Source: Escherichia phage vB_EcoM_VR20. From it: a stretch of 64,000 nt of DNA. Both the position numbers and the translations under genes were made by a program. Below, in pieces: positions 5,953 to 10,912 of the stretch. The stretch lies in the sequence record NC_028894.1; one strand, written 5' to 3'. Position 1 is the stretch's first letter; every line of letters starts with the position of its first letter. The notes beneath the pieces are model-generated. The model was not told the origin of the DNA. It saw only the letters and a program-made list of their open reading frames with translations, and did no database searches.

Positions 5953-6435
5953 TTATGCTTTTGCTGCGCCGCAATAATTAAAGATAAACTGCTCCGGGAC
6001 TACTTTATATGTTCCACGGAATACAATGTTGTAAAGCTTAACACCATCTTCAACCCACTGGTCTGTAATCCAACCTGCCATTTCTTTAGTTTCATATGCA
6101 TCGCCATACGGTTTAAATGGAACTGGAGTTATGAAACGAATACTTTTACCTAATTTCCATTTAAAATCAACACCAACATGAGACTGGTCAATGGTTTCAA
6201 CTTCTTCAACTACTGGAGCGATATATCCAGTAAATTCAGTTGATTCCAGGAATTTAGGATGTACATAAGCCAATTGAGTTTCAGTATGGCCATGTTTAGG
6301 AATAATACGCACTTTAACTTCTTTAATTCCACCTACTAAATTAGTGCGAAGACCCACAACCTCAACAAAACGCCCAGCAGCTTTAGAACGAGATTCTTTA
6401 GAAACACGTACAATATCACCAGCTTCAACTTTCAT
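5953..6435 (-). CDS. hypothetical protein sharing a C-terminal domain with the next gene
   Basis: 160-aa ORF; C-terminal GWITDQWVEDGVKLYNIVF...VVP also present in the 6512..7267 product. Confidence 0.5.
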   Translation of the reverse strand: MKVEAGDIVRVSKESRSKAAGRFVEVVGLRTNLVGGIKEVKVRIIPKHGHTETQLAYVHPKFLESTEFTGYIAPVVEEVETIDQSHVGVDFKWKLGKSIRFITPVPFKPYGDAYETKEMAGWITDQWVEDGVKLYNIVFRGTYKVVPEQFIFNYCGAAKA

Positions 6436-6511: not shown

Positions 6512-7267
6512 TTAATTATAAATTTTAACTACCATAGAACGTGGTACAACAGTAAATTCACCAGCATGGACAACGTTCAGGAGTTCAACACCATCTTCAA
6601 TCCACTGGTCTGTTACCCAACCACAAATGGAACTATTAAATGGGCGTTTGATTTGAACTGGTTTACATAGCAAGTCAATAGGGTCACCCAGCTCGCTAAC
6701 TTCTTCCAGCAGTACAGATTCACGCGGATAAAGGATAGCTTCAAGATTGTCACCTGATTCGTTGACTGCAGTAAATTCAAAGATGCTTTGGTGATTGTGG
6801 TACTTAACTGTTTTAACGGTAAATGGAGTAAATCCAAAAATACCTTTCAGTACCCGCCAACCAGCATGCATTGCGACAGTCTTTCCAAATTGACTATCAT
6901 CTTCAATAAGCTGATAGGTTTTACCAACTTTGATAGGAGTTTCTTCAACTTCTTTGAAGAGTTCAATCTCAGCTTCATAAACCATAATTTTTTCTACTTC
7001 ATTTGTATCAAGGCGACGTGCATGTAGAATATATGCTTTATCAAACCAGTTACTTTTTACAAAAGTTTCAACAATAAATTCACCTTCACCTAAAGCATCA
7101 GTCAGAGTATTATACCCAGAAACCATAGCTGCATTTTGAATAATAGGTTCAACCAGTTGATAAGTTTTGTTAATTTCAATAGTCATATTTTGTTTCTCAA
7201 GTTTTAATGGTTTAATTGGGCGAACATACATACTTACAACATCAAAGTCAATAAATTCTGGTTTCAT
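6512..7267 (-). CDS. hypothetical protein, paralog of the 5953..6435 product, with internal KTYQL repeat
   Basis: 251-aa ORF; C-terminal GWVTDQWIEDGVELLNVV...VVP; INKTYQLVEP and VGKTYQLIED internal repeats. Confidence 0.5.
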   Translation of the reverse strand: MKPEFIDFDVVSMYVRPIKPLKLEKQNMTIEINKTYQLVEPIIQNAAMVSGYNTLTDALGEGEFIVETFVKSNWFDKAYILHARRLDTNEVEKIMVYEAEIELFKEVEETPIKVGKTYQLIEDDSQFGKTVAMHAGWRVLKGIFGFTPFTVKTVKYHNHQSIFEFTAVNESGDNLEAILYPRESVLLEEVSELGDPIDLLCKPVQIKRPFNSSICGWVTDQWIEDGVELLNVVHAGEFTVVPRSMVVKIYN

Positions 7268-7524
7268 TATGCAACCTTATTGAACATCGCCAGTTGATTA
7301 TGTTGTACAACCATAATTTCACGACGACCTTTTGTGTTTGACACATTCAAGTAAATGCCTTTGTTCATGTCTGTTTCTTTATCATATACCGCAATTTTAT
7401 TGACAGTAAAGATTTTACCACGAATATTTGTAAATGCACATTCAAACGCTTTAGTCAGACCTGCTTCAGCAGCTTGAAGAGCAGACATTTCATATTGTTG
7501 GCCAATTTCAAAAGAAGTAATCAT
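7267..7524 (-). CDS. hypothetical protein (start trimmed to MITSFEIG)
   Basis: Track ORF 7267..7572 reads through the conserved promoter leader (STTDEDNKM); trimmed to the Met after the GAGGA site. Confidence 0.45.
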   Translation of the reverse strand: MITSFEIGQQYEMSALQAAEAGLTKAFECAFTNIRGKIFTVNKIAVYDKETDMNKGIYLNVSNTKGRREIMVVQHNQLAMFNKVA

Positions 7525-7555
7525 TTTGTTATCCTCATCAGTAGTTGATGAGATG

Positions 7556-7585
7556 ATTATGTCTCTTTCCATTGGCCTTGTACAC
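7556..7585 (-). promoter_or_regulatory. sigma70-type early promoter, -35 TGTACA, 17-bp spacer, -10 CATAAT, with conserved CATCAACTACTGATGAGGA leader
   Basis: Motif read on minus strand upstream of the 7524 start; member of a repeated promoter family. Confidence 0.5.
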
Positions 7586-7591
7586 TACTTT

Positions 7592-8275
7592 TTATCGTTT
7601 TTTCGGTAAAGATAACGGGTCTGCATCTTCTTCGGAAGGAACTTCATCTAAACCAAGAGCATAGCGCTGGGCATACTTTAACATCAAAATATCTTTCGCG
7701 CAGTCATGTACCGAATCGTGCGCCACAAATCCATCTAAAGTCCCTTTCGGTAATGGGGTTTCACACATCTTACGGACGAGTGACAAGGCTTCGATGGCTG
7801 TCCTGATATCTCGCTGGTTCCAGAATACAACCGGCTCCAGGTTATAGGTATTCAATTCACGCTCAGGAATCCCCTCATTGCGCTGTAGGTCACGGATAAG
7901 GTCGACAAACAACGGGAAGTCAAAAGACATTCCACGGCACCACATAAGGCTTTCGTATTTGTTAATTCCATTACCATTCAGATAGTCAATCGCCTGTTGG
8001 ATACCGGTCAGAGTATCAACATCATGCGCAGAAGGAGCCAGGTTAACACGGGCTTCTGCTGATTGCTTTTTCCACCAACCCATGGTTGTTGTATCGAACA
8101 GACGCTTACCTTTCTGGTATTCTAGGCTGAACTTAATGCGTTTACCGCGATTAACCAGAGTTTCAAAAGATTCCACAATAGCCGGGTCAGATTCGAACGT
8201 AATCAGAGCCAGGTCAATAACGGCTCCCTTCGAGCCGTTTCCCAGAGTTTCAAAGTCAATAATAGCATCAATCAT
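7592..8275 (-). CDS. dexA: exonuclease A (DEDD-family 3'-5' exonuclease)
   Basis: About 227 aa; IIDFETLG N-terminal motif, WCRGMSFDFP and GFVAHDSVHDCAKD regions as I recall T4 DexA; correct position upstream of dda. Confidence 0.8.
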   Translation of the reverse strand: MIDAIIDFETLGNGSKGAVIDLALITFESDPAIVESFETLVNRGKRIKFSLEYQKGKRLFDTTTMGWWKKQSAEARVNLAPSAHDVDTLTGIQQAIDYLNGNGINKYESLMWCRGMSFDFPLFVDLIRDLQRNEGIPERELNTYNLEPVVFWNQRDIRTAIEALSLVRKMCETPLPKGTLDGFVAHDSVHDCAKDILMLKYAQRYALGLDEVPSEEDADPLSLPKKR

Positions 8276-8277
8276 CA

Positions 8278-8352
8278 CACATCTCTTTTAATTTCTGAAT
8301 TTCACCAGCAACCATCGCACATCTCTTTTAATTTCTGAATTTCACCAGCAAC
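8278..8352. repeat. tandem duplication, two 35-bp copies at a 40-bp period
   Basis: cacatctcttttaatttctgaatttcaccagcaac at 8278-8312 and again at 8318-8352; spans the dexA start and the 3' end of the upstream ORF. Confidence 0.85.
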
Positions 8353-8547
8353 ATAGTCGGAGATAAAAATTCCTGGCTCTTCATTGTTAAAATACTCAAT
8401 CGCGGCCATACGTTTCCGAATAAGATTCAGTTCCAGTAAAACGTAATTACCCTGCACGACGATAGTCGGATTATCTTCGAAAAATTCAACCGCGTCCTGA
8501 ATACCATAGATGAGATTATCTAAATCTTCTTTATGTACCTTATACAT
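8302..8547 (-). CDS. small hypothetical protein whose C-terminus is altered by the tandem duplication
   Basis: 81-aa ORF ending EIQKLKEMCDGCW; without the duplication it would end EMCDDD overlapping the dexA start. Confidence 0.45.
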   Translation of the reverse strand: MYKVHKEDLDNLIYGIQDAVEFFEDNPTIVVQGNYVLLELNLIRKRMAAIEYFNNEEPGIFISDYVAGEIQKLKEMCDGCW

Positions 8548-9868
8548 AATATGCGTCGTACCTCGCTCGTGTGATTCCTACATAAGCCAACTGGCTCGCT
8601 AATGAAGCTTCAGCCATATGGATGCATGGAGTATAGATGAATGCTTTGTCCACTGAAACGCCCTGGGCCTTGTGGATTGTACTAACCGGAAGAGCACGAA
8701 CTTTCAAGAAGGTCCGGCGAGCTTTCCAGAAGTCTTTCCACTCTGGACGTTTACCAGCGGCTTTCATCTGTTTGTATGTGTCAGCAACTTTAGCCAGATA
8801 TGCCTGGAATTTCGGTTGCTGGTCTTCTGGTAAAACTTTGATGCGGTCAACTTGATATTCTTCATCTTCATCAATTGACTCAACTTCCAGGTCCCAGTAA
8901 TTAATCACTAACTGGTGCGATTCACCTTTACAACGGAGAATTGTGGAAGTGTATTTGCAATCCTTGATGCGAACCAACTGACCATTATTAAAAATGGTTT
9001 CGCTGAATTTCTTACCTTCAAATTCCAGCTCTTTCATGTGTGGCTCTTGCATAACCAGGACTTCATACGGTAAAAATGCTTTATCCGTTTCATATAGCTT
9101 GCGACGAATAATATTATTCAGTTTTTCAACTGATTTATTCGTATACGCATACATCCTGTTTTCCATCAACATATCAGCATCTTTTACAATACTGAAATAG
9201 TTTACCATGAAATCCTTTAAAGCGGTTTGTGAGGTGAAACCCTGTACACCATGACCATCATACATACAGTCACGGAACCAACCCCCATTACGAATTTCTG
9301 TCGCCACTTCAATGATAGGAGCATTGCTTCGCATGACCTCAGTCAGATGAATCTGTTTGAACTTAGGATGCGTAAAGAATGGGCTTATCTTTTGTTGTGT
9401 GCTTCCTGGGTCAACTGGTTGCAGCTGGTGCATATCACCAATCCCAAGAATAGTACACCATTCAGGAACAGAGTTAAGAATAATCTTAAACAGAGACCCG
9501 TCATACATACTTGCTTCATCACAAACCAGAACATTACATTTTGACATGTCAGGCATTTCGCGCTGTTCAAAAACGTTTTGGTCTTCATATGTGGTCGGGT
9601 TAATCTTCAGAATACTATGGATTGTATTCGCTGTTTGACCAGACAATTTAGATAGAACCTTTTTTGCCTGGTGAGTTGGTGCAGCAAGCACAATTCCCAT
9701 AACTCCATTACGCACCAGATGGTCAATGACAAATTTTGTCAGAGTAGTTTTACCTGTACCAGCTGGACCATTCAGAGTGATACATTCCCCTGAACGTCGC
9801 TGAATAGCTTCAGTGATATAATCAAAAGCTTCTTTTTGTCCTGTGTTCAAGTCTTCAAATTTAATCAT
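8540..9868 (-). CDS. dda: Dda DNA helicase (superfamily 1)
   Basis: 442 aa; Walker A GPAGTGKTT; Walker B-like CDEASM; position and size match T4 dda. Confidence 0.85.
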   Translation of the reverse strand: MIKFEDLNTGQKEAFDYITEAIQRRSGECITLNGPAGTGKTTLTKFVIDHLVRNGVMGIVLAAPTHQAKKVLSKLSGQTANTIHSILKINPTTYEDQNVFEQREMPDMSKCNVLVCDEASMYDGSLFKIILNSVPEWCTILGIGDMHQLQPVDPGSTQQKISPFFTHPKFKQIHLTEVMRSNAPIIEVATEIRNGGWFRDCMYDGHGVQGFTSQTALKDFMVNYFSIVKDADMLMENRMYAYTNKSVEKLNNIIRRKLYETDKAFLPYEVLVMQEPHMKELEFEGKKFSETIFNNGQLVRIKDCKYTSTILRCKGESHQLVINYWDLEVESIDEDEEYQVDRIKVLPEDQQPKFQAYLAKVADTYKQMKAAGKRPEWKDFWKARRTFLKVRALPVSTIHKAQGVSVDKAFIYTPCIHMAEASLASQLAYVGITRARYDAYYV

Positions 9869-10164
9869 GCCAATTTTACTCGCTTAACATATAAAGTATC
9901 TAAAACTAATTTCAATTCTCGTGCGTGTTCTTCAGTAGGAAAAACAGTTTTTGTTTCCCGCTTATCAAACCACCATTTTCTGGGAATATACCGTGTTTCA
10001 ATACGTCCCATGCGTAAATAGCGGTTTGTAGTATATAAATAGTTGGCAAGTTCATACTCTGCGCCCGGTTTTGTGGTGTATAAGGTAACCTTTCCATCAT
10101 ACTCCAATGGGCGTTCAAAACCATCTTTATCTTTGTGAACCAGCACATATGCGTAGTACATCAC
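9865..10164 (-). CDS. hypothetical protein
   Basis: 99-aa ORF, start overlaps upstream stop. Confidence 0.4.
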   Translation of the reverse strand: MMYYAYVLVHKDKDGFERPLEYDGKVTLYTTKPGAEYELANYLYTTNRYLRMGRIETRYIPRKWWFDKRETKTVFPTEEHARELKLVLDTLYVKRVKLA

Positions 10165-10165
10165 A

Positions 10166-10912
10166 TTAACCTCTAATCAGTTTAAAAATTGACGCGTTCA
10201 AAGGTAGACCACGTTTCAGTTTTAATTTACCAATAAAACCAATCTTCTCAAAACGCTCAAGACCTTGAATGATTTTATCATAGCAATCAAAAAGCGTTTC
10301 AGCATTAGTTAATTTCTTGGTAACTTTCCAGTCATTACCTTTGAGCAATACATTCAATTTAGTAAGCTCATGACCTTCCGCAACACGGGAACCATCAATG
10401 CGAGCCTTCAGAGCAACCATTTTTAATTGGTTTTCTTTGGACTGCTCCGATTTACTCATTTGAGCATAATGCTTAACGCGATTCTCACGTTTGTGTTGGA
10501 TGTTCTTGATATGAGTATATGACTTTTTAATCTGTTCCCATTTCTCTGCAGTCAGATTTAACTTTTCAATCTTCTTGGCAGAGGGGCGAGCAATTTTTAC
10601 AGCAACATCATCGCGACGTTGTTTAAGCTCATCAAGGGACCAATCAGAACGCATGGTATTGTATTTCTTTTTAACAGGAATAACATTACCTTTGATATAA
10701 CCAATATCATTGTTAAAACGCTCTAATGATAACTTCTCATCTTCAATAGAGTTGTTAAATGCTTCACCAGAATAAGCACAAACTTTTTGGTCAAGAATGT
10801 TAACCAGATAATTAAAATCCAGGTTAAAGTCCTTACCGCGACGTTTAGCGGAAGCTTGAGTGTGTTCCAGACGACGTTTAACTTTCAGCGTTTTGGTTTT
10901 TGATAAAGTCAT
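10166..10912 (-). CDS. HNH-like nuclease-domain protein, possible freestanding homing endonuclease
   Basis: 248 aa; CAYSGEAF...SLERFNNDIGYIKGNVIPV resembles the core of phage HNH endonucleases, followed by a long basic region; own promoter upstream. Confidence 0.4.
   Translation of the reverse strand: MTLSKTKTLKVKRRLEHTQASAKRRGKDFNLDFNYLVNILDQKVCAYSGEAFNNSIEDEKLSLERFNNDIGYIKGNVIPVKKKYNTMRSDWSLDELKQRRDDVAVKIARPSAKKIEKLNLTAEKWEQIKKSYTHIKNIQHKRENRVKHYAQMSKSEQSKENQLKMVALKARIDGSRVAEGHELTKLNVLLKGNDWKVTKKLTNAETLFDCYDKIIQGLERFEKIGFIGKLKLKRGLPLNASIFKLIRG

Follow-up and report, generated by a model that had tools for sequence, protein, structure and literature searches.

In Escherichia phage vB_EcoM_VR20 (NC_028894.1), a short sequence covering the end of one gene and the start of the next, dexA, is present twice in succession. 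This raises the question of whether the second copy is an error of assembly, a fresh mutation peculiar to this genome or an inherited allele, and of what the duplication does to the two genes that it joins. The window analysed here is a stretch of 64,000 nucleotides of this record, given as one strand 5′ to 3′, and all coordinates refer to it.

A 40-bp tandem duplication spans the dexA start

An earlier note on the window, made from the sequence alone, had described a 35-bp sequence occurring twice, as a tandem duplication at the junction of dexA and the ORF upstream of it, and both points were confirmed. An exact search for the plus-strand 35-mer CACATCTCTTTTAATTTCTGAATTTCACCAGCAAC returned exactly two occurrences, at 8278-8312 and 8318-8352, and there were no matches in 100 dinucleotide-preserving shuffles with up to three mismatches allowed (chance expectation, zero). 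Tandem Repeats Finder reported the interval 8269-8352 with a period of 40, 2.1 copies, a 95% match and a score of 154, which is the strongest tandem repeat of the 64-kb window (the runner-up scores 53), and single-copy relatives show a clean 40-bp gap at this place. In-register reading places the units at 8273-8312 and 8313-8352; they lie head-to-tail with no spacer and their sole difference is A8277 versus G8317. The minus-strand sequence of the unit is GTTGCTGGTGAAATTCAGAAATTAAAAGAGATGTG(C/T)GATG, which starts at a codon boundary (Val) of the upstream ORF and ends with the dexA ATG. The features of the region, in the order in which they are transcribed, are as follows.

8540..9868, minus strand: dda helicase gene (Dda SH3 domain, E = 1.9e-33), in the operon-like context dda, ORF, dexA
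8302..8547, minus strand: 81-aa ORF of the DexA.2/DexA.1 (T4 Y00H/Y00G) family (phrog_5263, E = 2.9e-32, residues 1-78)
8313..8352, minus strand: copy A of the 40-bp unit, the first to be transcribed; sequence GTTGCTGGTGAAATTCAGAAATTAAAAGAGATGTGCGATG; a clean 40-bp gap against single-copy relatives
8323..8328, minus strand: duplicate of the Shine-Dalgarno-like AAAGAG, with a 7-nt spacer before the mini-ORF ATG (read from the sequence; putative function)
8268..8315, minus strand: mini-ORF MVAGEIQKLKEMCDD* of 15 codons, made by the duplication (translated in silico; putatively translated in the cell)
8273..8312, minus strand: copy B of the 40-bp unit, downstream and contiguous with the body of dexA; TGT where copy A has TGC
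8283..8288, minus strand: native Shine-Dalgarno-like AAAGAG, with a 7-nt spacer before the dexA ATG (read from the sequence; function suggested by the spacing)
7592..8275, minus strand: dexA (exonuclease A), 227 aa, with its ATG at 8275..8273 (PF16473, E = 4.4e-16; phrog_255 exonuclease, E = 5.4e-75)

The minus-strand gene order is thus dda, the 81-aa DexA.2-like ORF and dexA, with an overlap of 8 nt between the end of dda and the start of the ORF. The protein encoded by the ORF has the same sequence as VR20_014 of Escherichia phage vB_EcoM_VR20. It is assigned to the DexA.2/DexA.1 family by a significant sequence match together with the same place between dda and dexA; PF26837 (Phage_T4_Y00H_G) is recorded for a protein identical to it, and the local copy of Pfam gave no match for the ORF. 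The dexA product has an Rv2179c-like exonuclease domain, and its start is placed equivalently in all annotated relatives.

Annotation of the small ORFs on either side of the junction varies among relatives. In UPEC01, UPEC07, CJ20 and YenM_P8 the annotated DexA.2-like ORF is longer by 12 residues at the N-terminus (MLESHERGTTHI-; 91 or 93 aa in total), and this extension overlaps dda by 44 nt and corresponds to 8548-8583 on the minus strand of the window. In the window, codon 2 of this extension is TAG (M*ESHERGTTHIMYK), through a change that is synonymous in dda, and the extended form therefore cannot be made here; throughout the family, the true start is probably the short one, at 8547. The ORF directly downstream of dexA (window 7267-7572, minus strand) is annotated as 101 aa (306 nt) or 85 aa (258 nt), depending on the relative, and phrog_17795 covers only residues 17-101 of the 101-aa version, which favours the 85-aa start.

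The same junction is found in other Gaprivervirus genomes

Positions 7500-9200 of the window were used as a megablast query against 50,697 phage records, this comparison with related genomes having been proposed earlier as a check of the repeat. The 32 records matched represent 27 distinct phages, all of them Gaprivervirus (SP18/VR7-like Tevenvirinae), at 93.7-97.5% identity, and no record of the collection exceeds 97.5% identity to the window over this region. Nine of the 27 phages (UPEC01, UPEC07, ECML-359, MN01, TH22, TH41, TH54, TH55 and TH57) matched as one 1701-bp piece and carry the duplication, and 18 matched as two pieces spanning 1661 bp and have a single copy. The carrier isolates originate from Uganda, the USA and Bangladesh. 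All five members of the VR7 clade that serves as outgroup (VR7, VR25, VR26, TH15 and TH40) have one copy, indicating that a single copy is the ancestral state.

The junction was extracted from 26 loci fetched from these relatives. The breakpoint …GAGATGTGCGATG|GTTGCTGGTGAAATTCA… is the same in 9 of 9 carriers, and the remaining fetched loci have a clean single copy; the junction may also be written …GCGATG|GTTGCTGG…, that is, GCGATGGTTGCTGG. The exact 81-aa …DGCW protein encoded by the duplicated allele was found in 30 blocks of a public assembly collection, and it was present in all 23 contigs read. These contigs include the ENA metagenome assemblies ERZ28618124, ERZ27274741, ERZ27235397 and ERZ15185071 as well as Logan assemblies; the look-up took in identical ORF proteins only, which gives a biased view of the haplotypes. 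These contigs all have that junction, which recurs in several independent assemblies from sewage or metagenomes and proved identical in the nine isolates and in six further contigs, and in 16 of 16 carriers examined. Among the 15 members listed of the 55 in the 90% identity protein cluster, the …DGCW form (81 or 93 aa) occurs on 18 contigs and the …DD form (79 or 91 aa) on 71. The duplication thus has a frequency of about 20-35% of sampled genomes, the sampling being non-random (isolates, and 15 of 55 cluster members). The only matches to motif scans for the dexA start in IMG/VR, the JGI metagenomes and the GTDB genomes were VR25, VR26 and a metagenome contig with one copy, none of them a carrier. 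Only one-copy and two-copy states were seen, and none with more than two copies. With its copies head-to-tail, its outgroups single-copy and its junction the same in independent genomes, the repeat is a heritable tandem-duplication polymorphism.

Haplotypes and recombination around the repeat

SNPs specific to one or the other copy distinguish at least five haplotypes among the carrier isolates and metagenome contigs. The window and UPEC01 have …CAG…TGC in copy A and …CAG…TGT in copy B, and eight isolates have …CAG…TGC in copy A and …CAA…TGC in copy B. Metagenome contigs add three more combinations: in one, both copies have TGT, and two others have GTTGTTGG in copy B. The SNPs of copy B are also found in single-copy genomes, with TGT present in DK-13, PSD2001 and L029 and CAA (TTCAA) in M719-6WT.2.

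Carriers are not monophyletic in neighbour-joining trees built from 250-bp or 700-bp flanks on either side of the repeat, and the flanks of carriers sharing the duplication differ from the window by 2-6%. A four-gamete test of flanking SNPs against the indel, using 16 carriers and 18 single-copy sequences, showed all four gametes at 98 of 183 informative sites, and no SNP is perfectly associated with the indel, an apparent association at 9177 being due to trimming of the sequence ends. The nearest sites with four gametes are 8198 and 8437, at 75 and 85 bp from the repeat, showing that the indel is in linkage equilibrium with SNPs 75-85 bp away. Two comparisons involve nearly invariant backgrounds: over 7298-8662 the 40-bp indel is all that separates ECML-359 (two copies) from EAWsc9 (one copy), and M719-6WT.2 (one copy) equals ECML-359 over 7833-8578 apart from the indel, while carrying the base specific to copy B.

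The duplication is an ordinary indel polymorphism, rather than an assembly error or a fresh mutation. Its history is very probably that of an old 40-bp illegitimate tandem duplication of single origin, which now persists as a near-neutral length polymorphism shuffled by recombination. One fairly old illegitimate event would have taken place in the SP18-like branch of Gaprivervirus, a genus of T4-like phages of E. coli, Shigella and Yersinia, and the very active homologous recombination of T-even phages would since have moved the duplication between genetic backgrounds. Loss may occur occasionally, by recombination or slippage between the two copies, and such collapse may already have happened. 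Exchange between the copies in either register could have produced both the G-type (EAWsc9, YenM_P8) and the A-type (M719) single-copy siblings of the ECML-359 haplotype; the ECML-359/EAWsc9 pair can be read as a loss by collapse or as a gain or loss through short-patch recombination. Homologous recombination in T4 drops steeply below about 50 bp of homology, which would help a 40-bp repeat to persist.

Coding consequences and predicted effect on dexA

In the single-copy allele, the upstream ORF ends …EMCDD and its TGA, with the stop 5 nt past the dexA ATG, overlaps that ATG (ATGATTGA). In the duplicated allele, the ORF enters copy B out of frame because 40 = 3n+1; it reads GAT GGT TGC TGG TGA and ends …EMCDGCW, with its stop at 8304..8302. 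These two endings had been deduced from the window, the first as an ancestral-looking terminus (written EMCDDD) overlapping the dexA start, and they are borne out respectively by the single-copy relatives and by the translation of 8302..8547. There are consequently two allelic protein lengths, 79 aa (…EMCDD) versus 81 aa (…EMCDGCW), with the last residue lost and three gained, and the changed tail lies beyond the conserved part of the protein, since the match to the phrog_5263 profile ends at residue 78.

Copy A encodes residues VAGEIQKLKEMCD of the 81-aa ORF and holds the duplicate of the dexA ribosome-binding site and ATG. Together with the 14 codons of copy B that come after it, read in the original frame of the ORF, this duplicated ATG (8315..8313) forms the mini-ORF, whose stop is the native TGA at 8270..8268 that overlaps the true dexA ATG (ATGATTGA). 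In copy B, dexA keeps its own AAAGAG (8288..8283), the 7-nt spacer and its ATG. In the two-copy allele the stop of the full-length ORF is 11 nt beyond the mini-ORF ATG and 26 nt short of the dexA ATG, and the stop of the mini-ORF lies 5 nt past the dexA ATG. Single-copy alleles hence have a stop/start overlap between the ORF and dexA, and the duplicated allele has one between the mini-ORF and dexA. Both dexA and the upstream ORF are intact in the one-copy and the two-copy state, and the mini-ORF is intact in every haplotype seen.

This arrangement suggests why the duplication is tolerated. The unit has its ends at an ORF codon boundary and at the dexA ATG and leaves one intact copy of every signal; straddling the gene boundary, with one intact copy of each gene end remaining, the duplication is expected to be near neutral, a reading that draws on sequence logic and on a thermodynamic fold. 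The spare dexA start in copy A would open a 15-codon mini-cistron ending at the original stop over the dexA ATG, and the ancestral geometry of termination and reinitiation at the dexA start would thereby be kept. Judged from the order of starts and stops, a relay of termination-reinitiation from the ORF to the mini-ORF and on to dexA is possible, with the dexA ribosome-binding site unchanged.

RNA folding of the one-copy and two-copy mRNAs showed no meaningful difference in accessibility at the dexA start. For the dexA initiation region (-14..+3), the predicted probability of being unpaired averaged 0.38 in the duplicated allele, compared with 0.37 and 0.42 in the two single-copy versions that are possible, and the idea that the duplication unmasks a sequestered dexA start was dropped, as the predicted accessibility is unchanged. 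A scan of 7400-10200 for sigma-70-like promoters and intrinsic terminators found none in or beside the repeat, the total matches being no more numerous than in shuffles, and no Rfam family matched within 7900-8700 at E ≤ 1. A duplicated middle promoter was also rejected: by eye, the TTGCTGGTG of the unit matches the T4 MotA box poorly and lacks a TAnnnT at the right distance.

It is unlikely that selection keeps the duplication as an adaptive regulatory variant, either for retuning the translation of dexA or for the altered C-terminus of the DexA.2-like protein. The routes proposed for such an effect, namely a second ribosome-binding site, a leader mini-cistron and the displacement of the ORF stop to 26 nt from the dexA ATG, are equally doubtful; the collapsibility of the repeat might in addition make it a reversible switch. 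Selection would account for the intermediate frequency of the duplication over continents, for the persistence of a direct repeat in a highly recombinogenic phage, for the intact mini-ORF in all haplotypes seen and for the apparent gain or loss on identical backgrounds, but the predicted accessibility of the dexA initiation region does not change, the altered tail of the ORF is outside the conserved part and only one-copy and two-copy states occur. Moreover, the SNPs are too few for a constraint test on the mini-ORF, and the look-up of identical ORF proteins biases the view of its conservation. A frequency of about 20-35% over continents is compatible with weak positive or balancing selection as well as with near-neutrality. 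A more specific proposal, that the duplication is a selectively maintained and occasionally reverting translational tuner that, through the second ribosome-binding site and the 15-codon relay cistron placed between the DexA.2-like gene and dexA, would shift the amount of exonuclease A relative to Dda and DexA.2, is rather improbable, and little credence is given to its corollary that host- or frequency-dependent selection would keep both alleles in the population.

Breakpoints and alternative origins

On the minus strand, …CTAT precedes the unit, the unit runs G…GATG, and ATTG follows it. There is no exact microhomology of 2 nt or more at the breakpoints, which are unambiguous, and the nearby homology is imperfect only (around both breakpoints, minus-strand ATG·TTG·TG and plus-strand CA.CAA.). 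Slippage on exact microhomology was rejected as the source of the duplication, as there is no shared exact repeat and a slip via the common ATG would give 39 bp, not 40. The lack of exact microhomology makes it unlikely that the duplication arose independently several times at the same two nucleotides, and parsimony applied to the identical junction points to a single origin. The suggestion of a recombination scar in the earlier note holds only loosely, in the sense of a product of illegitimate recombination or template switching.

A recurrent origin, in which a hotspot re-forms the same 40-bp duplication, perhaps when two single-copy phages infect one cell and exchange unequally, and carriers on different backgrounds would stem from independent events, is improbable. 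Polyphyletic carriers would be expected from it, the copy B SNP of each main haplotype is known from single-copy genomes, as unequal exchange between two parents would give, and there is imperfect homology around both breakpoints. Heavy recombination, however, accounts for the polyphyly without new events, given the four-gamete failures within 75-85 bp, and a junction that lacks exact microhomology and does not correspond to an ATG-guided slip, which would give 39 bp rather than 40, is exactly the same in 16 of 16 carriers examined.

That the duplication is very recent, as in the main reading of the earlier note, and confined to this genome or its closest lineage is highly improbable. The near-identity of the copies in the window (one difference per 40 bp) speaks for it, but the duplication is common to phages that are 2-6% different in the flanks, it occurs in at least five haplotypes on carriers from several continents and in linkage equilibrium with SNPs at 75-85 bp, and even the TGC/TGT difference between the copies of the window is also present in UPEC01. 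An artefact of assembly or sequencing, raised in the same note, in which the true genome has a single copy and the assembler made the second, has a negligible probability, as the same junction occurs in nine independently sequenced GenBank isolates and in ENA and Logan metagenome assemblies from different assemblers (contig names k141_, k119_, NODE_ and scaffold_), the SNPs between the copies are stable across isolates, and the 80-bp structure is shorter than ordinary short reads, so that single reads would span both copies. The old, single-origin duplication shuffled by recombination is the reading retained below.

Comparison with known systems

T-even phages undergo short tandem duplications and deletions by illegitimate recombination or template switching, known from classical T4 rII work, and the duplication at dexA is of this long-known kind, here as a natural segregating allele. 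It resembles those duplications in being head-to-tail, spacerless, tens of bp long and bordered by imperfect end-point homology, in arising in a phage with recombination-dependent replication and in being potentially reversible by exchange between copies. It differs from them in that it segregates in wild phages rather than being a laboratory mutant, its junction has no exact microhomology and its copies have diverged. No mention of this junction was found in literature on Gaprivervirus and dexA or on T4 tandem duplication and illegitimate recombination.

At the equivalent junction of T4, dexA.1 and dexA have a TAATG stop/start overlap, like the ATGATTGA of the single-copy allele. The duplicated allele retains an overlap of the T4-like type, between the mini-ORF and dexA, with putative coupling, but differs in that its ORF ends 26 nt before the dexA ATG with a 15-codon relay cistron in between. 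The 81-aa ORF shares 31% identity with T4 DexA.2 (E = 2e-9), which has the same position between dda and dexA, and 28% identity with T4 DexA.1 (E = 2e-4). These T4 proteins (Y00H/Y00G) are small early proteins, and the duplicated Gaprivervirus allele differs by the C-terminal change from D to GCW. T4 has both dexA.2 and dexA.1 between dda and dexA, whereas Gapriverviruses have one such gene; by sequence similarity, the T4 genes (AF158101, 1409-1889) look like tandem paralogues of one ancestral small gene.

The polymorphism also resembles variable-number tandem repeats and contingency loci in that copy number differs between close genomes, even those with identical flanks. It is unlike them in having a long, unique 40-bp unit, one-copy and two-copy states only, and both genes intact in both states, and its reading as a phase-variable locus is weak.

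Use of the two alleles and further observations on the region

Public records already annotate the product of the duplicated allele as a hypothetical protein of 81 or 93 aa. The 81-aa …DGCW and 79-aa …DD forms are two real alleles, and assemblies should not 'correct' the duplication. The locus is a natural example of an out-of-frame duplication across a gene boundary that is tolerated, with each signal surviving in one copy. Its length, scored by PCR, could serve as a marker with which to trace recombination among Gaprivervirus phages, a group that includes components of phage-therapy cocktails, and if the adaptive reading were true the locus would provide a small case study of the tuning of translational coupling; its significance for biology at large is little.

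Other irregularities were noted among the relatives. The record PQ671644.1 (Escherichia phage DCP80, 140,978 bp) has the dda-dexA region twice, at about 69.6-71.3 kb and about 116.6 kb, which suggests that it holds a duplicated or mis-joined segment. A mosaic patch lies at about 6008-6110, an indel or replacement block in the region of the motB/motB.1 junction. In a second patch, at about 10360-10660 on the srd/dda.1 side, eight phages (PSD2001, P479, P896, EAWsc9, YenM_P8, M719-6WT.2, MN01 and ECML-359) appeared to diverge from the window by about 50%, a figure computed with wrong gap columns.
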